In this document: positions 14,968-29,223 of the stretch, piece by piece | Layout of the letters: each line of letters opens with the position of its first letter | Position numbering within the stretch: the first letter of the stretch is position 1 | Origin: Thermoplasmata archaeon | Lineage (GTDB): Archaea; Thermoplasmatota; Thermoplasmata; Thermoplasmatales; B87-G9 | Assembly: GCA_003649695.1 (NCBI GenBank) | Contig: QMSR01000001.1 | Location: forward strand, 1-36,312 | DNA length: 36,312 nt | Direction: 5' to 3' | Made by a program: the position numbers and the translations under genes | Notes under the pieces: model-generated | Told to the model about the DNA's origin: nothing | What the model saw: only the letters and a program-made list of their open reading frames with translations | The model's database searches: none

Positions 14968-15165
14968 TCAGTATGAACTATTGCATGCCTTCTCATACAA
15001 GGCATTGATCTTTGATGCCTGTCGATGTGAAAAATCTTCGTCGGAACAATGACTGTAGGTGATCTTCTTCTTCATGCTCTTAATGAAATCGACCTCCCAA
15101 TCATTCCCTATCAGATGCACCACCTCATCAATTTCCTCAATTTTCTGCTTCAGCGTCAATGACAT
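14968..15165 (-). CDS. Hypothetical small protein
   Basis: ATG at 15165 with AAGGAGG 7 nt upstream. The track start at 15192 would lie further inside the polymerase gene. Confidence 0.5.
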   Translation of the reverse strand: MSLTLKQKIEEIDEVVHLIGNDWEVDFIKSMKKKITYSHCSDEDFSHRQASKINALYEKACNSSY

Positions 15166-16547
15166 ATCTCCACCTCCTTCTTCTGCGACCAATTCCCATC
15201 TACTGGAGTGACCTCAGCTTCGATCTCTAATGGGACGTTGATCCATTTCCACCGCCTCGTCAATTTCTTCGTCATCACATAATTTGCCAATGCCAAAAAA
15301 TCATCTAGTTCTTCATGCGGGACATCAGCTACAATACTATCATGAATCTGCCCTACAATCAAAGTCTTCATGTGTCTCTTTCTCAATTCCTTCAGCACCA
15401 ACTGGATGAGCGACCATAAGAGACAATGAAACGCAGAGCCTTGGACCGGATAATTGATAATCTCATTCCTCTTCATGTATCCTTGGCAGATGAATCCGGT
15501 CTTTGTTTTCATCCACCCTCTTTCCTGATATTTCTTGACCCATCTCTGCTTCCATCTTGCATACACTGAGAATCGTTTTTCCCAGAAATGCTTCTCCACC
15601 TGCTGAATATGGTGCTCAAATGTTCCTTTCACAGGTTTTTCCTTTGGATCTAGATCACCCAATCTTTTGATTCCTTGAGACTTCAGATGCTCTTTCAATG
15701 GGGTTCCTGAAGCTGTTTCCAGATGCATCGAATCTATGGCCTCCCATAGACTTCTGGCGCAATCCAGATACCAGTCACCGTAGAATTGTGGAAAGACAAA
15801 CATATTCTTCCCGCAATATCTCACTTTTTTCGTCACTTCATCTTGCGAGAGCCGATAGCATTCCATCGCCATATCACGATGCATGTCCTTGGTCTCATCA
15901 CAGATGTATTCGATCATCACTGGGTCTTTATGGTAACAGGCTGCTACCCTCACCTCTATTCCCGAGTAATCCAGCTCCACCAAATGACGACCTTTTCTGG
16001 CAATGAATGCCGTGCGCACCAGCTTCCCTATCTCTTCATTGCGAATCGGGATATTCTGAAAATTTGGAGAGTCAGAAGAAGACCGGAAGGTAGATGCCAG
16101 ATGAAGATTGAATACAGGGTGAACATACCCATCCACCACCTCTCTCTTCACTCCCTTCAAATATGTCCCGACAGCCTTCTCTAATTTCTTGATCTCCAGA
16201 TAGGATTGGACAAAGGGATGGTCAATCGCTGTCAATGCCTTCTCGTCTGTCTTTGGTTTTCCTGACGAGGTCAATGCCGTAGATTTATACCCCATTTCAT
16301 TGAATAGGATATCACCTAGCTGAACAGTAGAATTGATGTTGGTTTTCCTCTTGTATTTCTTCCGCCATAATTTCATGATCTCACTGCTGTCATTCCTGGC
16401 CTTGAGCCTTTTAATTCTCCTCTGCGTCCTGATTATCGCATTATCCAAATATTTTTCATCAATCCGGAGCCCAGCACCTTCCACTCTCGCGAGAGCCAAG
16501 GATCCTTGATGAAGCAATTGGTATGCATTGATATCATATGGTATCAC
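15156..16547 (-). CDS. Family A DNA polymerase, polymerase (palm/fingers/thumb) portion only
   Basis: Motif A VELDYSGIEVRV, motif B RYCGKNMFVFPQFYG, motif C QIHDSIV. No ATG near the 5' end. GTG at 16547 (TTG at 16550) with AAGGAG 7 nt upstream. Confidence 0.9.
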   Translation of the reverse strand: MIPYDINAYQLLHQGSLALARVEGAGLRIDEKYLDNAIIRTQRRIKRLKARNDSSEIMKLWRKKYKRKTNINSTVQLGDILFNEMGYKSTALTSSGKPKTDEKALTAIDHPFVQSYLEIKKLEKAVGTYLKGVKREVVDGYVHPVFNLHLASTFRSSSDSPNFQNIPIRNEEIGKLVRTAFIARKGRHLVELDYSGIEVRVAACYHKDPVMIEYICDETKDMHRDMAMECYRLSQDEVTKKVRYCGKNMFVFPQFYGDWYLDCARSLWEAIDSMHLETASGTPLKEHLKSQGIKRLGDLDPKEKPVKGTFEHHIQQVEKHFWEKRFSVYARWKQRWVKKYQERGWMKTKTGFICQGYMKRNEIINYPVQGSAFHCLLWSLIQLVLKELRKRHMKTLIVGQIHDSIVADVPHEELDDFLALANYVMTKKLTRRWKWINVPLEIEAEVTPVDGNWSQKKEVEICH

Positions 16548-17736
16548 CAATAATCTCCTTCTGCCGTTCCATGATCATATATTCTATGAGGCTGTCCAAT
16601 CCATTATATACCAACAGATCTCTAGTACCTATCTGATCTATACTATTCAGGAGATTGGCATGCTTAGATTTGAGATATGGAAAGATATGAGAATTGTAAT
16701 CAGAAATGCCCAAAAGTGAGTAGGCTTGGAATTTGACGGAGGTGACATGCGAATGATTGGTGAGGACATGAGCCATCAGCATGGTGTCCCAATACCAGTT
16801 CTCCACTCTACATCCCAGTTTCGCCTTTGTCCATCGCTCCTCATATTTGATGTTGGCTGCTACCTTTCTCAGAGGTGATTGCACCACTCGCCTAAGAGCT
16901 CTATGCTCCTTTTCAGTGATCATACAGGCGAAGGTATCCTCACCATTCAAACAAAAAGAAACGCTGACAATGCGTTGCTCAGCTCGCTCTGGCTTCAATC
17001 CCGTCCCTTCGTAATCAAATGCGACGATGCCTTTCTTCTTTGCGAGATCAGCCATTCTCTTACGTGCCAGACGTGGTGATGTAATGATTTCGATCTTCGA
17101 CTCCAGGTCACTCAATGAAACAGGTGGCAAAGGCTCTTTCTCCAATGACATCGCATGCTCAAGATGACGGCGAAATATGCCCATGAGACATTCATCTTTG
17201 CCCATCCGCAAGATATATGAGGGGTGATATGTAGGACAGAGCCATGCGCGATGTGTACTGCTCGGAATGGTGAGACCAGCCCACTTTGAGATCGCACTTG
17301 TGTCCTTCTGATTCTCCCCTGTCAAAATACTACGTAGAGCGGAGCCTCCTAATAAGATGATGACTCTAGGTTTTAGGTCTCTTATGGTGTTGAGCAATGA
17401 TGCTCTGCAACATGAAATCATATAGGGTTCAATCTTATTCTCCGGAGGACGACATATTACAGCATTGGTCTTCCAGCAATCCTCCAGATCTACTCCTATC
17501 GACTTCAGGGTTCCTCTGAGCAAGTTTCCAGCATCACCGATCAATTGAACACCCTGACGGTCCTCTTGCTCTCCTGGAGCCTCGGCGACGAAGAGGACTT
17601 TATGCCTGCCCTTGCCAGTAGGTTTCATCTTGGGGCTGAGGCATTTTTTTGCCAGACCACATTCACCACATTTTGGAATGGTGGAAAGCCTGGGAGCCTT
17701 CCTTTCATAACTGTGAGGCGAGAAAAATCCTGCCAT
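16534..17736 (-). CDS. Family-4 UDG-like domain fused to the Pol A-type 3'-5' exonuclease domain
   Basis: UDG-like region: CGECGLAKKC, FVAEAPGEQED, GDAGNLL, HPSYILR. Exonuclease: ExoI AFDYEGTGL and ExoIII YNGLDSL. The ORF ends 14 nt inside the polymerase ORF. Confidence 0.85.
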   Translation of the reverse strand: MAGFFSPHSYERKAPRLSTIPKCGECGLAKKCLSPKMKPTGKGRHKVLFVAEAPGEQEDRQGVQLIGDAGNLLRGTLKSIGVDLEDCWKTNAVICRPPENKIEPYMISCCRASLLNTIRDLKPRVIILLGGSALRSILTGENQKDTSAISKWAGLTIPSSTHRAWLCPTYHPSYILRMGKDECLMGIFRRHLEHAMSLEKEPLPPVSLSDLESKIEIITSPRLARKRMADLAKKKGIVAFDYEGTGLKPERAEQRIVSVSFCLNGEDTFACMITEKEHRALRRVVQSPLRKVAANIKYEERWTKAKLGCRVENWYWDTMLMAHVLTNHSHVTSVKFQAYSLLGISDYNSHIFPYLKSKHANLLNSIDQIGTRDLLVYNGLDSLIEYMIMERQKEIIGDTI

Positions 17737-18897: not shown

Positions 18898-19836
18898 TCA
18901 TATGAGCCCTCTCTTCATCGACTTGAATGGGCGAGGCCATTCTATCCTCTTTTCCACCTCCTCCATATACCTCATATTGACCACTGCCCGAACCGCGACT
19001 GAATTAGACACTCCAGCCACCTCAATCTTCTCGACAATGACATGATCCTCATGCCGACAAAATATGTTTTCTTCGCCCCTGGCTGATACCTTGTATTTTC
19101 TCTCCTCTCTACGATATGACGATTTCCCTATCACCACTCCCATGTCCTTGAGATATTTATCCACCTGCTTCTTGTGTGCTGCATTCATAGAATCATAATG
19201 AGCACCCTTTTCTTTCCGCAGATCGTTCTTGGTGGAGAAATTCACCACACGAGGTGTCTTGAGATAATTTCGTTCTCCGTCTGGCTCAGTCCAAGGAATC
19301 ATCACCCCGCCATACATAGCACACCTCAACCATGATGCACTGTCACACGAATACCATGGATACCTCAGCATCAAAGGGACTGACGTCACCGCAAACCCAT
19401 GAAACTTGGCCTTGGGCATGCCTTTGTCATCACACACGATTCGCATGCATTGATCAAGCCACAACTGTCTCTGATAAGATGTGCGATCATTTGCAGGGGA
19501 TATTCCAAAGTATGGGACACCTCGACGAATAAATCGCCGCAGCCATTTGAAGTCATCGTTCTGATGGAAGACTGGAAGAACCTTTTCCACTGGCAGACCT
19601 GCCTTCAGCATACGCTGATAATTTTTCCATCCCAGCTCACAGGATGTCTCAATATTTTCTCTGGTGAGAGAAGCCTTGTCACCGGGCCTGCCTGGAATGA
19701 CGTCTAGTGCAACAATGACATCAATCACATCGAGGTGGTCTTTGCAGAATTCAATGTATGCGTCCAGGTCGACCTCAGACCCCTTTGTCCAGACCGAGAA
19801 CGCTCCAGAATCCATCATCAAAAGTTCGACGCTCAT
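18898..19836 (-). CDS. dpdA: DpdA-like DNA (7-deaza)guanine transglycosylase (TGT superfamily)
   Basis: MDSGAFS (compare TGT DSGGFQ), HGFAVTS, SCDSASW. Its ATG overlaps the queF stop by 1 nt (TAATG). Embedded in the preQ pathway genes. Confidence 0.75.
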   Translation of the reverse strand: MSVELLMMDSGAFSVWTKGSEVDLDAYIEFCKDHLDVIDVIVALDVIPGRPGDKASLTRENIETSCELGWKNYQRMLKAGLPVEKVLPVFHQNDDFKWLRRFIRRGVPYFGISPANDRTSYQRQLWLDQCMRIVCDDKGMPKAKFHGFAVTSVPLMLRYPWYSCDSASWLRCAMYGGVMIPWTEPDGERNYLKTPRVVNFSTKNDLRKEKGAHYDSMNAAHKKQVDKYLKDMGVVIGKSSYRREERKYKVSARGEENIFCRHEDHVIVEKIEVAGVSNSVAVRAVVNMRYMEEVEKRIEWPRPFKSMKRGLI

Positions 19837-20297
19837 TATTCCCTCAATTCCATTCTGATTGCAGGAGTATGGAACCCTTCTTTCTGACTCCATGTAGCAT
19901 GCACTCTGATGGCGAGTGCTCCCCTTGGTGCAAAATCACCTATGACATTCATGTAGACAGGATAAGATACCTGCACAAAATCACGCAGAATCTTTCCTGT
20001 GATACTCTCCATGAATGCTCCGAAATTCCGATAGGCGAACATGTAGAGCTTGATGCTCTTGCTCTCCAGACACACCTTATTCGGAATATATCGCACGGTA
20101 ATGGTGGCGAAATCTGGCTGGCCGGTCTTCGGGCAGAGAGAGGTGAACTCAGGGAAGCTCATCTCCACCATATAATCATCTCCGACATGACGATTTGGGA
20201 AGACCTCCAGCATCTCAACGCAAGGCTCTTCATACGTGTAATCCGTCTTATTGGACCCCAATGATTTCAATTTGCTCACATCATCCAATACAGCCAT
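19836..20297 (-). CDS. queF: NADPH-dependent 7-cyano-7-deazaguanine (preQ0) reductase, unimodular type
   Basis: EFTSLCPKTGQPDFATI (catalytic Cys/Asp) and the QueF motif ESKSIKLYMF. Close overall resemblance to Bacillus-type QueF as I recall it. Confidence 0.85.
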   Translation of the reverse strand: MAVLDDVSKLKSLGSNKTDYTYEEPCVEMLEVFPNRHVGDDYMVEMSFPEFTSLCPKTGQPDFATITVRYIPNKVCLESKSIKLYMFAYRNFGAFMESITGKILRDFVQVSYPVYMNVIGDFAPRGALAIRVHATWSQKEGFHTPAIRMELRE

Positions 20298-20306
20298 TCC
20301 TTCTCC

Positions 20307-21221
20307 TTATCCTCGAACAATAGTCAGAAATTCCTCTTTCACACCCTTCTCAGATTTGAAGACACCTTCGAGTGAAGATGTCACCATGATAGAATTTTGC
20401 TTCTCCACCCCTCTACTCGTCATGCAGAAATGTTGTGCCTCAAGAAGACATGCTGCTCCGAGTGGGCGAAGTTCTTTCATCAGAATGCTGGTGACTTGAC
20501 GACATATCCTCTCCTGGATCTGCAGACGGCGGGCGAAACACTCTAGCAATCGCGCCAGTTTGCTGATCCCCACCACCTTACCATCAGGAATGTAGGCTAT
20601 ATGAGCCTTGCCAAAGAATGGTAGAATATGATGCTCACAGGTGGAATAGAACTCGATGTCCTTCAGAACCACCATCTCATCTGATGAATCGTCCTCAAAT
20701 GTTTTGAGGATGTCTTTCGGATCCTGCCTGTATCCTCCATATAATTTATACCATGACCGAACCACTCTTTCCGGAGTCTCCAGCAACCCCTCCCTCTGAA
20801 CATCCTCACCAATATACTGCAGCATACGAACGACATTCTCCTCAGGACCTCGCTCCGCATTCATCCTCTCCCACGGGAACTCCACCCACCTATTCTTCCA
20901 TGATGAATTACGCTTGTCGATGAGACACATCCCTCGAGGATTTCCAGTGGTCTTTTTCCACATCTTCATGGTCCTTCCGGAATCATAGATGTCATCCACA
21001 ATGATATCAGCCAGACCACTATCCTCTGTGATGGATAATAGAGGTGAATGTTGAGCAATGGCCATCGCTGCATACACCCCTCCTCGAGGAATGCCAAAAA
21101 GACGGGCTCCTTCTGGCCATATGTCAAGAATGGCACGAGCACATTGTTTCGCTATATCCTTGACATCCTTCCAACTCAAGCGATAGATATCACTTTGTGC
21201 ATCTGAACACTCAGGCGCCAT
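20307..21221 (-). CDS. folE: Fusion protein: N-terminal type-I phosphoribosyltransferase-like domain (aa 1-120) plus GTP cyclohydrolase I (aa ~125-304)
   Basis: PRTase: LFGIPRGGVY, PRPP loop DIIVDDIYDSGRT, WVEFPWE. FolE: STCEHHILPFFGKAH, GISKLARLLECFARRLQIQER. AAGGAG lies 8 nt upstream of ATG 21221. Confidence 0.85.
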   Translation of the reverse strand: MAPECSDAQSDIYRLSWKDVKDIAKQCARAILDIWPEGARLFGIPRGGVYAAMAIAQHSPLLSITEDSGLADIIVDDIYDSGRTMKMWKKTTGNPRGMCLIDKRNSSWKNRWVEFPWERMNAERGPEENVVRMLQYIGEDVQREGLLETPERVVRSWYKLYGGYRQDPKDILKTFEDDSSDEMVVLKDIEFYSTCEHHILPFFGKAHIAYIPDGKVVGISKLARLLECFARRLQIQERICRQVTSILMKELRPLGAACLLEAQHFCMTSRGVEKQNSIMVTSSLEGVFKSEKGVKEEFLTIVRG

Positions 21222-21820
21222 AATGGGTTCTCCTTCACGAATTTGACTGCTGGCTGAAAATCTTCGGACAATGGCTGGATGTATAGGTGTCTGAATCGAT
21301 GCCGCAACATTGGTCCATACCTTCTCAATAGACCAATATCACCATTAGGATCCAGCACCACCTTCAGCTCATCTCCGCACCACTTCGAATCCACAAAATA
21401 TGACTCAATAATCTCATCAGATTGCACACCCAATTTCGGTGAGACCGTAATCCAATTGAGAATGTTACTCTGCCTCAAATCCTGCAATACAGGACGAGCC
21501 AGATTTGTCCCATTGGTCTCCATTGCTATCATGCACATAGGGAGTGATGTATGCAATGCAGTCACCAATTCTGCATATTTATGAATGGTAGGCTCCCCAC
21601 CAGTAATCACCACCAAAATATCCGAATGATCATGCGGAATCTGATGACTGATAGCCTTCACCACCTCATCTGCCGAACAATAGAATCTCGGAGGGACATG
21701 AGTATCACACCATGGACATTTCAGATTGCATCCCCATAGACGAAGGAATATTGCAGCTCTGCCTGTCCAATACCCTTCACCTTGAAGAGAGTAAAAGATT
21801 TCACTCACGGGATATACCAT
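21176..21820 (-). CDS. queE: 7-carboxy-7-deazaguanine synthase (radical SAM)
   Basis: EIFYSLQGEGYWTG, Fe-S cluster motif CNLKCPWCDT, and ITGGEPT. Confidence 0.85.
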   Translation of the reverse strand: MVYPVSEIFYSLQGEGYWTGRAAIFLRLWGCNLKCPWCDTHVPPRFYCSADEVVKAISHQIPHDHSDILVVITGGEPTIHKYAELVTALHTSLPMCMIAMETNGTNLARPVLQDLRQSNILNWITVSPKLGVQSDEIIESYFVDSKWCGDELKVVLDPNGDIGLLRRYGPMLRHRFRHLYIQPLSEDFQPAVKFVKENPLWRLSVQMHKVISIA

Positions 21821-22176
21821 GCTTTGTTCCCTTCGCTTTCCTGGACCTCCACCTGTTCCACGCGAGCTGATGAGTTAGAGAATGACAGGTGATTGTCAAC
21901 CTCCTCAGCAATCCACTTAGCGATATTCTCTGCCGTAGGGTTGATAATTTCTTCTGCGCCCACCACATCATTGATGCATTGATGATCCAGCTTATGCACT
22001 ATCTCCTTGAGAGATTTAAAGTCAATTACCATGCCTGTGCAATCCAATTCCTCTGCCTGCACTGTCACCACGATGATCCAATTATGTCCATGCATATTCT
22101 TACAAGCGGAATCATATGGCAAGTCCAGCCAATGAGCCCCTGCAACCTCGATTCGTTTTGACACTCGGAACATCAT
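21805..22176 (-). CDS. queD: 6-carboxy-5,6,7,8-tetrahydropterin synthase (PTPS family)
   Basis: AHWL...CKNMHGHNW, a size of ~120 aa, and its genomic context. Confidence 0.85.
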   Translation of the reverse strand: MMFRVSKRIEVAGAHWLDLPYDSACKNMHGHNWIIVVTVQAEELDCTGMVIDFKSLKEIVHKLDHQCINDVVGAEEIINPTAENIAKWIAEEVDNHLSFSNSSARVEQVEVQESEGNKAWYIP

Positions 22177-22835
22177 TTCTCCTCGTATGCGACCGGATCC
22201 GTCTTTCCAATGAGCCGAAATGCTTCAAGCCTCTCCTGACAGGCTCCACATTTACCACAGGCAAGAGGCTGATGCTTGTAACACGTCCTGGTCATCTCAT
22301 ATGGGACACCATGCTCATATCCCCACCTCAAGATGGACTCCTTGTCACTGTAGATGAAAGGAGCTTCCAGGCACACCTTATTATCTGTGCCAGCCATGAC
22401 TGCATCATTCATGGCTATCAAAAATTCGGGCCTGCAATCTGGATAGATGGCATGATCACCGCTATGAATGCCGAGAAATATCTTCCCAGCACCATTCGAT
22501 TCAGCAATGCCGGCCAAAATAGATGTGAATATCATGTTCCGGCCAGGCACCACCGTGAGCTTCATATTCTCATCCTCATAATGACCTTCCGGGATCTCAC
22601 CTCCACTGAGAAGCAGGTTGGACTTCAGCGCCTTTCCGACATTGCTCAGATCCAGCCGAATGAGATCAATTCCGAAATGCTGACAGAGACGGACAGCACA
22701 CTCACGCTCATATTCATTGTGCTTGCTGCCATAGGTAAAATTGACTGCCAGCGTCTTTCCCAAGATGTCCGAATACCTCAAAACAGTCGCAGAATCCATT
22801 CCACCTGATACGGATACCACGTGCTCATAACTCAT
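22173..22835 (-). CDS. queC: 7-cyano-7-deazaguanine (preQ0) synthase
   Basis: PP-loop SVSGGMDS and C-terminal zinc site C-x8-CGKCGAC. ATG at 22835 preceded by TAAGGAGGAGAATA. Confidence 0.9.
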   Translation of the reverse strand: MSYEHVVSVSGGMDSATVLRYSDILGKTLAVNFTYGSKHNEYERECAVRLCQHFGIDLIRLDLSNVGKALKSNLLLSGGEIPEGHYEDENMKLTVVPGRNMIFTSILAGIAESNGAGKIFLGIHSGDHAIYPDCRPEFLIAMNDAVMAGTDNKVCLEAPFIYSDKESILRWGYEHGVPYEMTRTCYKHQPLACGKCGACQERLEAFRLIGKTDPVAYEEK

Positions 22836-22850
22836 TATTCTCCTCCTTAA

Positions 22851-22904
22851 ATAAAACGCCTGAGAGCCCAGCACTTAATATCCATAAGGCTGGGCTGACT
22901 CAGG
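22851..22904 (-). terminator. Rho-independent terminator immediately upstream of the queC RBS
   Basis: Minus strand: CCTGAGTCAGCCCAGC, 16-nt loop, GCTGGGCTCTCAGG, then CGTTTTATTT, running directly into AAGGAGG. Confidence 0.6.
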
Positions 22905-22912
22905 TTGTAGAT

Positions 22913-23485
22913 TTACTTTTGAAACGACAGTTTCTTGTTGCTGTCCTCGACCAGCAGTTTCTCAAACGGATTGTAGGTAGGATTCTTCCCGTCCGACAGA
23001 TAAGTCCGAATGGTGGTTTCCTTTGCGTCCTCAACCATGTCTTGGACAAATTCCACCACCTCCGCCCGAGTCCGCTTCTTCTTCAGGGCCTTGACAATGG
23101 CAGCAAGGATCTCATTCTTCTTGGCAGTCCTGGCTGAACGAGTGGAAGACTCCTTATTGGCAGACTTTTTGGTGGAAGACTTCTTCTTGGACTTGGCCGG
23201 GGGTTCATCCTCGTCATCGTCCTCATCCTCGTTGTCCTCATCATTCTCTTCGTCCTGTCCTTCCTCACCATCGTTTTCGTCGTCCTCGTCGTCGTCTTCG
23301 ATCTGCACCTCAAAACCAATTGAGGCAAAATATTCAATTTCCTCATCTGTCAGATCGATGTCTTCCGGGACACCATTTTTCTCCACCTCTCGAATGATCT
23401 TCTTCTCTGCCCGGTCTGCGGAAATCTTTGCCGTGTAGTTGAGGCCGAGCTTGTCCATCAACTTCACCAATTTTGCACGAGTCAT
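22913..23485 (-). CDS. Acidic/basic low-complexity protein with small globular ends (possible DNA- or chromatin-associated protein)
   Basis: ATG at 23485 after GGAAAAGGAGAAGAA. Central D/E/N run followed by EPPAKSKKKSSTKKS. It shares a 49-nt identical DNA segment with the SSB gene. Confidence 0.6.
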   Translation of the reverse strand: MTRAKLVKLMDKLGLNYTAKISADRAEKKIIREVEKNGVPEDIDLTDEEIEYFASIGFEVQIEDDDEDDENDGEEGQDEENDEDNEDEDDDEDEPPAKSKKKSSTKKSANKESSTRSARTAKKNEILAAIVKALKKKRTRAEVVEFVQDMVEDAKETTIRTYLSDGKNPTYNPFEKLLVEDSNKKLSFQK

Positions 23486-23554
23486 TTCTTCTCCTTTTCC
23501 TTTCCTGAACAACAAAACAAAATAAAAATTCTTACACCACATTATCATCATGAA

Positions 23555-27329: not shown

Positions 27330-28708
27330 TATTGTCTCCTTTTCAAATGCCTGATAATTGCATCAAAATCCACATCAGTCCTGAGAGTAGATTTTCCGTC
27401 TATCACTTGGGACACCACATCTCGTTTCTTCTCTATGATCGCCCACACATATTCATCTATGGTGTCTCGTGCTATCATATGATATGCTGTAATCTTATCA
27501 GCTGCTTGACCGATTCTGTTCACTCGGTCCTCAGCTTGGTCATGCTCACCTGGAGTCCATCCATGCTCAACGAATAGAGTGGTGGATGCGGCAGTCAATG
27601 TAATGGCCTGCCCATCTGCTTTGATTGATCCAATGTATATTCTGCACTTGTCATCCTCCTGAAATCTACGGACGTCATCAGCTCGCCTTTTACTCCCTGC
27701 TCCGCCTACTGCAGCGATCTTTTTGTATCTCTTTTTCAATAGATCAAATATGACATGATGGTGACAAAACACTACGAGCTTTTGACCTGTCATTTCCAGG
27801 AAGTCATCAATCCATTCCATGGCGGCTCTCATCTTTCCTTCTGCTGCCAGACGTTTCAGCTGACCCAACTTGACGAATCCTTCAGCCTTAGCAGCCTTCA
27901 GAGCTTTTTTCTCACCCTTCTTTGAGGCGTACCATTCCAAGAAATGCTTTTTGGCTTGCTCATATTCCCTGCGATTGGACAATTCCACTGGAAGAACGAT
28001 CCGCCTTTTTGGTGGCAATTCTTTCAGCACATCTGTCTTCATTCTCCGAATCATGAAGGGTGAGACCATCTCATGCAGCTCCTCAGTATGAGAAGCACCT
28101 CGAAAATCCCATCCTTGTCCTCGCCATGCTCTTTTTGGGTCACAATATCTCATCGCATACTTCCAGAATGATGAAAATTGTTTAGGTCGCACCATGTTCA
28201 ATACGGGGAAAAATTCAATAGGTCTGTTGATGATGGGTGTGCCACTGAGACACATCACATGAGGACAGATCTTCGCAAGATTTTTGCAGACTTTTGTCCG
28301 TTTTATCCCTCGTGTCTTCACATAATGTGACTCATCAATAATGAGCACCTGAGGACACATCGCTAGCAATTCACTCTCCCAATTCACAATGATATCATAA
28401 TTGAGGATCACAATATCAGAGGAGATGGCATATGTGCTTCTGCCTGACAGAACCTCACAATCGAGATCAGTATGCTCTTCTATCTGTTCCTGCCAATTGT
28501 ATTTTCCATTCGCAGGACAGACGATCACGACAGGACGAGCCTCCGGGTGAATGGCAAGCCACCCCAGAGCTTGCAAGGTTTTCCCCACACCCATATCATC
28601 ACCTATGATGGCTCGTCCTGCATTCTTCTCCAGGAATCGGACCCCACGTATCTGAAATCTCATCATAGGTGTCTTGATGCAGGCACGAAGTCTAGAGCCT
28701 ACAGACAC
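27329..28708 (-). CDS. SNF2/RAD54-family DNA-dependent ATPase
   Basis: Motif I GDDMGVGKT, motif II LIIDESHYVK, motif III LSGTPIINR, motif VI QAEDRVNRIGQ. GTG start at 28708 with GGAGGGAGG 7 nt upstream. Confidence 0.85.
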   Translation of the reverse strand: MSVGSRLRACIKTPMMRFQIRGVRFLEKNAGRAIIGDDMGVGKTLQALGWLAIHPEARPVVIVCPANGKYNWQEQIEEHTDLDCEVLSGRSTYAISSDIVILNYDIIVNWESELLAMCPQVLIIDESHYVKTRGIKRTKVCKNLAKICPHVMCLSGTPIINRPIEFFPVLNMVRPKQFSSFWKYAMRYCDPKRAWRGQGWDFRGASHTEELHEMVSPFMIRRMKTDVLKELPPKRRIVLPVELSNRREYEQAKKHFLEWYASKKGEKKALKAAKAEGFVKLGQLKRLAAEGKMRAAMEWIDDFLEMTGQKLVVFCHHHVIFDLLKKRYKKIAAVGGAGSKRRADDVRRFQEDDKCRIYIGSIKADGQAITLTAASTTLFVEHGWTPGEHDQAEDRVNRIGQAADKITAYHMIARDTIDEYVWAIIEKKRDVVSQVIDGKSTLRTDVDFDAIIRHLKRRQ

Positions 28709-29223
28709 GCAGACACCTCCCTCCAGACAGTATTGACCTTCTCAGGATGCCAGTCCAGGACATCAATCATGTATGCTTTGAGAGCCTCAGCTCTCCTTTC
28801 TTGTTTTCCGCGAATGATCTCTTTTCGCAATTCATCGGGAGCTTCACACACAACTTTCACCAGAGCCCGGGCCTCATCACCAATCTCCTGCATGATGTCA
28901 CCAATCCAAGAAGAGGTGGAGGGCAATTGATGAGCCAGGTCATTATCATCTGTCAGGTCACTGAAATCTGTTGCTACATGTCTCTTCCGTTTTGGATTGA
29001 TGCAGTATGATTTCATTTCATCCCATGCTGAACGATAGACCCATGTACAGAGAGAGGATTTGGCAGAGTCATAGCGGGGGAGGTACTTCATCACTCCATT
29101 GATGCCTTCACTCACCAGCTCATCAAAATCCTCATTGTGCTGTTTGGCCATCTTCCAGGCGATATTATAGATCATTTCCTTGTACTGTTCCCATACACTT
29201 TCCATCGTGATTGTGGCTTCCAT
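28699..29223 (-). CDS. Sigma-70 family (ECF-like) factor candidate
   Basis: Region-2-like YKEMIYNIAWKMAKQHNEDFDELVSEGINGVMKYLPRYDSAKSSLCTWVYRSAWDEM. C-terminal HTH-like segment (LKAYMIDVLDWHPEKVNTVWREV). Confidence 0.5.
   Translation of the reverse strand: MEATITMESVWEQYKEMIYNIAWKMAKQHNEDFDELVSEGINGVMKYLPRYDSAKSSLCTWVYRSAWDEMKSYCINPKRKRHVATDFSDLTDDNDLAHQLPSTSSWIGDIMQEIGDEARALVKVVCEAPDELRKEIIRGKQERRAEALKAYMIDVLDWHPEKVNTVWREVSACL

Follow-up and report, generated by a model that had tools for sequence, protein, structure and literature searches.

The window analysed in this work is the whole of a 36,312-bp contig (QMSR01000001.1) from a metagenome-assembled genome (MAG) labelled Thermoplasmata. 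Its minus strand carries contiguous genes coding QueC, QueD, QueE, a fusion protein, QueF and DpdA. The fusion protein (304 residues; 20307..21221, (-)) has a carboxyl-terminal GTP cyclohydrolase I (FolE) preceded by an amino-terminal domain that is predicted to be a phosphoribosyltransferase (PRT). A preliminary description of the sequence had placed this fusion inside a deazaguanine operon, which is borne out by the contiguous que and dpdA genes. Far from being restricted to this contig, the fusion represents a large, widespread and unannotated family that includes proteins of cultured phages. We give about an even chance to the reading in which the PRT domain salvages the guanine released by DpdA to GMP, and then to GTP, for use by FolE.

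Organization of the Fusion Gene

The gene is a single open reading frame (ORF) that starts with the ATG at 21221 and ends with the stop codon at 20307..20309. As initially described, it is a 304-aa ORF preceded by a Shine-Dalgarno sequence of its own, AAGGAG (21230..21235, (-)), which is read directly from the DNA and is separated from the ATG by an 8-nt spacer. The 5' end of the gene shares 46 nt with the 3' end of the ORF coding the QueE-like protein (21176..21820). Public annotations of the same contig give shorter products of 290 aa (JGI) and 185 aa (NCBI), the latter named “GTP cyclohydrolase I FolE”. The ATG at 21221 was accepted as start over these calls because the resulting amino terminus, MAPECSDAQ, aligns with the ME..S.DTQ-type starts found in about one third of the homologues. 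A split or frameshifted gene, considered from the outset, was rejected for the window: no stop or frameshift is found between the two domains, and 79 of 82 related loci likewise code both in one uninterrupted frame. The domains are joined by a linker (residues 119–126; 20844..20867, (-)) whose blocks have a pLDDT of 82–91 in the AlphaFold2 (AF2) model of the full-length fusion (pLDDT 91.9, pTM 0.80). The high pTM suggests that the PRT and FolE domains are held in a fixed mutual orientation.

Fold and Class of the PRT Domain

Residues 1–120 (20862..21221, (-)) are predicted to form a compact type-I PRT of the Gpt/XGPRT class, and not an orotate, uracil or adenine PRT. This assignment is based on profile searches, on an AF2 model compared to known structures with Foldseek, and on a residue map to Escherichia coli Gpt; it substantiates the first impression that this region looks like a type-I PRT. 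The single sequence gives low scores. Pfam Pribosyltran (PF00156) matches at 25.4 bits in the isolated domain and at 21.6 bits in the full protein, without reaching the gathering score of 26.3, and the NCBIfam equivalog NF006613 (Gpt/XGPRT, EC 2.4.2.22) matches at 26.5 bits for a cut-off of 138, which is likewise not reached. The NCBIfam xanthine PRT family (E 4e-6) and the PHROG family phrog_8995 “phosphoribosyl transferase” (E 8e-6) also match the PRT half. A single-sequence phmmer search of the PDB with residues 1–125 returned noise only. The profile A2, built from 34 amino-terminal domains of the family, finds in the PDB the purine PRT of Pyrococcus horikoshii (1vdm) as best match (E 2.7e-10), followed by the Yersinia and E. 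coli XGPRTs (~2e-7) across the whole domain, while HPRTs match more weakly.

The AF2 model of the PRT domain obtained from alignment A2 (pLDDT 91, pTM 0.83) has, by structure comparison, the Rossmann-like alpha/beta core of the type-I PRT fold. The Foldseek comparison with the PDB, a check proposed in the preliminary description, yielded purine PRTs only: the top 50 matches are 49 6-oxopurine enzymes and one Sulfolobus adenine PRT (4trb), and no other fold is seen among them. The 6-oxopurine enzymes include E. coli and Yersinia XGPRT, Sulfolobus HGXPRT, 1vdm, Helicobacter pylori XGHPRT and two Plasmodium HGXPRT entries. The best match is Yersinia XGPRT (6kp5; E 4e-6, TM 0.66), and matches 1–43, all solved purine PRTs, have a probability of 1.00 and TM of 0.59–0.68. 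The PRT half thus shares its predicted fold and class with E. coli Gpt/XGPRT (1a95/1nul/4jls), Yersinia 6kp5, P. horikoshii 1vdm and Sulfolobus GpT-2. Identity to Gpt is only ~17%, the domain is shorter (~118 versus 152 aa), and the carboxyl-terminal tail of Gpt is replaced in the fusion by the linker to FolE.

Active Site of the PRT Domain

E. coli Gpt (sequence identical to PDB 1a95) was aligned with 110 non-redundant members of the family, to which the conservation values below refer. The motifs initially pointed out, LFGIPRGGVY, DIIVDDIYDSGRT and WVEFPWE, are all present. The pyrophosphate (PPi)-binding loop P45-R46-G47-G48 (Gpt S36-R37-G38-G39; 21078..21089, (-)) has its proline and both glycines in 100% of the members and its arginine in 97%. 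The Pfam Pribosyltran match falls exactly on the loop binding phosphoribosyl pyrophosphate (PRPP), I73-T84 (IIVDDIYDSGRT; 20970..21005, (-)), which shows the expected pattern of a hydrophobic run, two acidic residues and D-[ST]-G-x-T. Within it, D76 and D77 (Gpt D88 and D89) are 100% conserved, D80 (the catalytic Asp, Gpt D92) 97%, S/T81 (Gpt T93) 96%, G82 (Gpt G94) 99% and T84 (Gpt T96) 99%, S81-G82-x-T84 being the 5'-phosphate loop. The base-binding end (20868..20915, (-)) is made of K103 (Gpt K115; 84% conserved, with arginine in a further 5%), a short hood, and W112-V-E-F-P-W-E118, in which the resemblance to the WIEQPWD end of Gpt-type enzymes proposed earlier is now an alignment to Gpt W134-IEQPW-D140. 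Conservation there is 98% for W112 (Gpt W134), 99% for P116 (Gpt P138), 99% for W117 (Gpt W139) and 98% for E118 (Gpt D140). The roles that we take these residues to have (PPi loop, Mg/ribose Asp pair, N7-directed Asp, O6 Lys, stacking Trp) are those of XGPRT/HGPRT structures. The PRT half is therefore Gpt-like in its RGG PPi loop, DDxxD[ST]GxT PRPP loop, lysine before the hood and W-x-x-x-P-W-[DE] end. It differs in two missing segments, confirming by alignment that the usual hood/flexible-loop insert is absent: Gpt residues 52–70 (the flexible-loop hairpin, including R69) have no counterpart in 90–100% of the 110 members, and Gpt 119–129 (~11 hood residues) are also absent from the PRT half.

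Outside the lost loops, the positions of Gpt that contact substrates are strongly constrained in the 110 relatives, which supports a 6-oxopurine PRT. From the sequences and models we infer that the domain is a catalytically competent, minimal 6-oxopurine PRT with guanine as its most likely substrate. The same residues bear on a different role, in which the PRT fold would be non-catalytic and would serve as a sensor of PRPP, guanine or guanine nucleotides that tunes the activity or the decamer assembly of FolE, in the manner of the PRT-fold regulators PurR and PyrR. The loss of the catalytic flexible loop and of part of the hood fits such a sensor, as do the rigid packing on FolE suggested by the pTM of the full-length model (0.80), the lack of a direct channelling logic between the PRT product and FolE, and a Dehalococcoidia chromosomal relative that keeps the PRT next to a degenerate FolE half (CERH instead of CEHH). 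However, D80, the Mg/ribose Asp pair, the PPi-loop Arg and the stacking Trp are 97–100% conserved, beyond what binding usually demands; the stand-alone and split versions of the domain (see below) argue for autonomous activity; and a lytic phage has no obvious need for allosteric control of FolE. A sensor role is considered improbable.

FolE Domain

The preliminary description recognized a clear FolE at residues ~125–304; a complete Zn-dependent type IA enzyme is found at residues 127–302 (20316..20843, (-)). Pfam GTP_cyclohydroI matches it at E 1.1e-68 and the TIGR00063 equivalog cut-off is passed (221.7 versus 181.6 bits). The domain keeps C195-E-H-H198, H264 and C266, which comprise the Cys-His-Cys Zn ligands and the catalytic His. 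In an alignment of 40 homologues, C195, H198, H264 and C266 show no variation, and at least 90% of the sequences have H197. S220, K221, R224 and R270 are also invariant among the 40 homologues; they presumably correspond to the triphosphate contacts S135, K136, R139 and R185 of E. coli FolE. The invariance of these residues makes GTP still the likely substrate, and the use of GMP directly by FolE, which would skip the kinases, was rejected as a leading idea on the same grounds. Canonical bacterial and phage FolE proteins have ~180–220 aa and no PRT domain. The fusion differs by the PRT placed in front, while its carboxyl-terminal half resembles FolE type IA in the equivalog score and in the intact Zn and catalytic residues.

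Spread of the PRT-FolE Family

A word-indexed protein search retrieved more than 120 clusters of proteins of ~300 aa with 50–61% identity to the fusion and 86–100% coverage. Precomputed Pfam annotation of these homologues reports PF01227, sometimes together with PF14489, and never PF00156. An exhaustive profile search of clusters at 50% identity gave 4,626 representatives at E ≤ 1e-3, of which 1,104 pass E ≤ 1e-10. The proteins inspected from the top 150 of these 4,626 matches are nearly all PRT-FolE or fragments thereof. Most matches of 115–250 aa are contig-end fragments, a few are true stand-alone or split genes, and family proteins of 340–370 aa have longer linkers. The ~580-aa metagenomic proteins P0134, P0136 and P0154 are PRT-FolE with an intein and an HNH homing endonuclease inside the FolE domain. 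Other fusion partners were unhelpful as a functional clue: the longer proteins are accounted for by intein/HNH insertions or linkers, and the only recurrent second partner is DUF6378, a domain common in phages. This rare architecture has the order DUF6378-PRT in P0245 and P0248, and PRT followed by a DUF6378-like tail in P0179; it is also represented by L083:2358-3029, on a 3-kb contig.

In a cultured-phage collection the fused domain is present in 34 records, under genes annotated “GTP cyclohydrolase”, out of 391 records with FolE. The carriers are Pseudomonas phages of the Nipunavirus genus (PaMx25, NP1, JG054 and others), the Baskent_P4_1 and PSASB_03 group, Stenotrophomonas, Variovorax and Xanthomonas phages, Sphingomonas phage MMDA13, and the Vibrio VpKK5 and 1.207.B groups. 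In the GenBank record of PaMx25 the region is divided between “hypothetical protein PaMx25_38”, which is in another frame, and a 191-aa folE. The folE frame (L001:5899-6792) is open from an ATG through the full PRT domain and codes 297 aa; the split is an annotation error. A scan of a genome collection with the generic pattern [VI]DDI[IV]D[ST]GxT gave at least 6 confirmed loci, a number that says little on the frequency of the gene in cellular genomes. Chromosomal PRT-FolE-like genes, found in Tepidiformaceae (L087:7947-8918) and in Dehalococcoidia (L088, L090), have no que or dpdA genes within 8 kb. The FolE half of L087 is degenerate (CERH) and also lacks the GISKLAR motif, its PRT motifs being retained.

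Genomic Context

The context set is composed of 80 IMG/VR and 2 GenBank loci, whose stop-to-stop frames were searched with iterated hidden Markov models seeded from the window proteins. PRT and FolE are coded in one frame in 79 of the 82 loci; the exceptions are a contig end, a frameshift and a lone PRT. Split PRT and FolE genes are seen in L025 and L084. QueD is coded in 81 loci, QueE in 79 and DpdA in 77, four of the five loci without DpdA being contig ends. QueC is found in 65 loci, in five of which it is long (~1.4 kb, the size of Gat-QueC), and a separate QueF in about six. The usual gene order is QueE, QueC, QueD, (PRT-FolE), DpdA, sliding clamp and PolA.

The window genes upstream of the fusion, all on the minus strand, code QueC (preQ0 synthase; 22173..22874, (-); Pfam QueC, E 1e-54), QueD (PTPS family, CPH4 synthase; 21805..22176, (-); Pfam PTPS, E 7e-30) and, as immediate neighbour, the QueE-like radical SAM enzyme (21176..21820, (-); Pfam Radical_SAM), a synthase of 7-carboxy-7-deazaguanine (CDG). 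The downstream neighbour is QueF (19836..20297, (-); Pfam QueF, E 1e-27). It carries ESKSIKLY, which we take to be the NADPH motif of QueF; its presence predicts a preQ0-to-preQ1 reductase and dPreQ1 as DNA base. The next gene codes a DpdA-type DNA guanine transglycosylase (18898..19893, (-); phrog_887, E 4e-43) with 31% identity (E 4e-33) to the Tgt/DpdA protein of PaMx25.

The closest parallel for an accessory domain on a core enzyme of the preQ0 pathway is Gat-QueC, in which a glutamine amidotransferase is fused to QueC (phage 9g-type). Gat-QueC alters the final base (to G+), whereas PRT-FolE occurs with every end product and apparently does not specify the base. Clusters that lack QueC may carry a GT1-family glycosyltransferase and/or an extra ~435-aa radical SAM protein between PRT-FolE and DpdA: both are found in L040:9217-11687, the glycosyltransferase only in L018:9198-11745 and L010:9264-10535, and the radical SAM protein only in L073:9304-11633. 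These extra genes hint at further, undescribed 7-deazaguanine derivatives.

Guanine Salvage as Proposed Function

In the proposed mechanism DpdA, coded two genes downstream of the fusion, would insert a 7-deazaguanine (in this window probably preQ1) into phage DNA in place of guanine, each exchange freeing one guanine. The PRT domain would condense guanine and PRPP to GMP and PPi, host GMP kinase and NDP kinase would convert GMP to GTP, and the FolE half, probably a decamer like other FolE enzymes, would return this GTP to the pathway formed by FolE, QueD, QueE, QueC and QueF. The net result would be a closed purine cycle in which the guanine-nucleotide cost of modification is roughly halved. 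Salvage would also clear guanine, a competitor of the deazaguanine base for the transglycosylase. Free guanine is itself an exchange substrate of TGT enzymes, so its removal should favour insertion of the deaza base.

Comparative data for the fused form lean towards guanine salvage rather than phosphoribosylation of a deaza base. The 97% conservation of the N7-directed Asp (D80) is more in keeping with a true purine as substrate than with a 7-deaza base, and CDG would be an especially poor fit since its 7-carboxylate would clash with D80. The pocket residues are the same in clusters without QueC, with QueC, with QueC and QueF, and with the long, Gat-QueC-sized QueC. A dependence of pocket residues or hood length on the end product was looked for and rejected, as neither varies with cluster type. 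A pocket that is not tuned to the end product suggests a substrate shared by all clusters. The regular association with DpdA, coded in 77 of the 82 loci, also counts for salvage. The PRT is either joined to FolE or coded directly upstream of it, including in the split versions and in the distant phage immuto, the lone PRT of L069 being an exception. FolE consumes GTP, and its physical tie to the PRT favours a guanine PRT that refills the GTP pool. No nucleotide kinase, ribonucleotide reductase, dNTPase or NTP pyrophosphatase was found among the window proteins; the missing kinase, reductase and dNTPase count for salvage. Phages Iggy (16.5% dPreQ0) and CAjan (~32%) modify G, as given in the iggy paper and in Cui 2023. 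Both have no fused PRT domain. The domain is accessory, as seen in these two phages and in its presence in 34 of the 391 FolE records, which suits a booster or salvage role.

Several points weigh against this function. The single-sequence scores of the PRT half are below the curated family cut-offs. The flexible loop of studied 6-oxopurine PRTs closes over the transition state; the PRT half, having lost it together with part of the hood, may be poorly active or depend on help from an adjacent subunit. Two kinase steps separate GMP from GTP, hence there is no direct channelling by the fusion, and hosts normally carry their own Gpt/Hpt. Neither dpdA nor que genes lie next to the Dehalococcoidia chromosomal relative. 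Finally, the genes found next to stand-alone PRTs (coding dNMP-kinase-like, ribonucleotide reductase and MazG-like proteins; see below) also fit a route at the nucleotide level.

Stand-Alone PRTs of Phages

The lone PRT of L069, an IMG/VR contig, has 142 aa (L069:7998-8426). It is coded ~1.6 kb downstream of an IMPDH/GMP-reductase-family gene (L069:5451-6422; Pfam E 2e-46), with two ORFs in between, a pair that suggests purine interconversion in a jumbo phage. A tblastn search with this stand-alone relative found small Gpt-like PRTs in the Campylobacter CP220, CPt10, CP21 and F379 group, in Cellulophaga phages phiST, phi13:1 and phi19:2, and in Flavobacterium phages immuto_2-6A, 3-5A and 13-6C. 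The “phosphoribosyl transferase” CGPG_00045 of phiST is also the best structural match of the PRT domain in BFVD. The genes are YP_009169316 in CP220 (L091:8989-9402), L092:8980-9408 in phiST and gp211 in immuto_2-6A (L093:8971-9366). These proteins belong to the same Gpt-like family: R-G-G, DD, D80, T84, W112 and P116 are invariant in alignment A3. They differ from the fused domain in being coded by separate genes (131–142 aa) and in keeping more of the hood, and phiST also keeps the loop. An adjacent stand-alone PRT, which the preliminary description suggested to look for, is found in immuto, where gp211 lies directly upstream of folE in a cluster coding PRT, FolE, a MazG-like NTP pyrophosphohydrolase and a P-loop kinase. 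The gene order of phiST is PRT, a weak dNMP-kinase-like gene, a hypothetical gene and ribonucleotide reductase. A radical SAM gene lies two genes after the PRT in CP220.

Stand-alone copies open the question of a general purine salvage that is unrelated to DNA modification and acts, for instance, on degraded host nucleic acid, the link to FolE being an accident of gene order. The lone PRT of L069 is compatible with it, as there are no que genes nearby on this 191-kb viral contig, and in some jumbo phages a distantly related copy is coded well away from folE. Yet the 79 of 82 loci that fuse PRT to FolE do so inside a que/dpdA cluster, the inspected proteins among the best 150 profile matches are nearly all PRT-FolE, and the fused-domain matches in the phage collection fall on FolE genes only. 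Moreover, the stand-alone matches in Campylobacter phages are all in genomes of 160–210 kb or in partial genomes. We take this to be the size class of the dADG-containing Firehammervirus and not of the ~130-kb, deoxyinosine-containing Fletchervirus. Such a general role is very unlikely.

Replacement of 100% of G is reported in Cui 2023 for the groups of CP220, phiST and immuto (by dADG, dDG and fdPreQ1), and these three complete-replacement groups are exactly those in which the tblastn search found a stand-alone PRT. Cui 2023 ascribes complete replacement to DpdA3 and concludes that every phage 7-deazaguanine modification is post-replicative; DpdA3/DpdL could not be reconstituted in E. coli, and ADG nucleoside is cited in the cytoplasm of CP220-infected cells. 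The coincidence lends circumstantial support to the second idea of the preliminary description, that the PRT acts on the deazapurine itself. Like TubE and ToyH, it would join PRPP to a pathway base (CDG, preQ0, preQ1 or one derived from them), yielding a 7-deaza-GMP analogue and opening a pre-replicative route at the nucleotide level. This reading is the main rival of guanine salvage, and we regard it as rather unlikely. In its full form, which likewise has a low probability, both fused and stand-alone PRTs would make such analogues, to be turned into dNTPs by kinases and ribonucleotide reductase and then used by the phage polymerase. There is a precedent in TubE, a proven CDG + PRPP transferase homologous to ToyH (PMC6112128). 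These enzymes of tubercidin and toyocamycin synthesis, compared here by published activity only, are like the fusion in being PRPP-dependent PRTs found beside FolE, QueD and QueE homologues (same source). They differ as stand-alone 194-aa enzymes of Streptomyces secondary-metabolite clusters that lack a nucleic-acid transglycosylase (bioRxiv 2026.04.15.718813). The related stand-alone PRTs in all three 100%-replacement groups, their neighbours in phiST and immuto that look like nucleotide metabolism genes, and the DpdA3/DpdL and ADG results mentioned above are further points in favour of such a route.

The retention of DpdA argues in the opposite direction, since with DpdA in 77 of the 82 loci (four of the other five being contig ends) a second route is unneeded and would draw on the base that DpdA uses. 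The pocket shows no adaptation to the final base, and the conserved D80 would lack its N7 partner and would repel a 7-carboxylate. In the window no kinase, reductase or dGTP-clearing enzyme was found, and close relatives of PRT-FolE phages modify their DNA without the domain. The 100%-replacement phages keep DpdA3 and the equivalent of Asp80; as complete exchange frees the most guanine, their PRTs fit guanine salvage equally well.

Novelty and Implications

The published maps of the phage pathway comprise FolE, QueD, QueE, QueC, QueF, DpdA and DpdL/M/N, and no PRT. A PRT is not mentioned in the accessible text of Hutinet 2019, Cui 2023, the iggy paper and the 2017 deazaguanine review, in agreement with the preliminary statement that described phage 7-deazaguanine pathways have none. 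In the accessible literature no link of a PRT to this pathway was found, an earlier mention elsewhere being possible, and the PRTs named in the accessible text of virome papers are NAMPT or purD. The PRT and FolE halves are of known kinds; new relative to this literature are the way in which they are joined, the minimal PRT without a flexible loop, and its regular occurrence in the deazaguanine clusters of phages. One of the system's enzymes was overlooked because annotation pipelines name the carboxyl-terminal half only.

A conserved PRT domain is present inside more than 1,000 “FolE” clusters, including those of easily grown Pseudomonas, Vibrio and Stenotrophomonas phages. Modification of phage DNA by 7-deazaguanines is an active field in relation to anti-restriction, anti-CRISPR and new DNA chemistries. 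Guanine recycling, if true, would be the first described purine-economy step of base-exchange DNA modification and a possible means of driving DpdA forward. If instead the PRT acts on a deazapurine, the question of pre- versus post-replicative incorporation would be reopened, chiefly for fully substituted genomes: a nucleotide-level route would explain 100% replacement of G and overturn the all-post-replicative view (Cui 2023). A natural 118-residue loop-less purine PRT is also relevant to enzymology and to nucleotide-analogue biocatalysis.

Other Genes of the Window

The rest of the window codes replication and recombination proteins. They include DnaB, a DnaG-type primase, clamp, clamp loader, UvsX and an SNF2 helicase, together with a sigma-70 region 2 protein (28699-29223). 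This content resembles a replication module of bacterial tailed phages, which makes mis-binning of the contig into the Thermoplasmata MAG likely; homologues are labelled Heimdallarchaeaceae, Clostridia and Peribacteraceae. A 212-aa ORF (22913-23551, (-)), situated between QueC and the helicase module, has a long Asp/Glu-rich run followed by a Lys/Ser-rich run and no family match except one borderline PHROG match. The family-A DNA polymerase is split in two ORFs: one (16534-17736, (-)) codes a uracil-DNA-glycosylase-superfamily domain and a 3'-5' exonuclease, and the next (15156-16550, (-)) the polymerase domain. This split arrangement recurs in 28 related loci.

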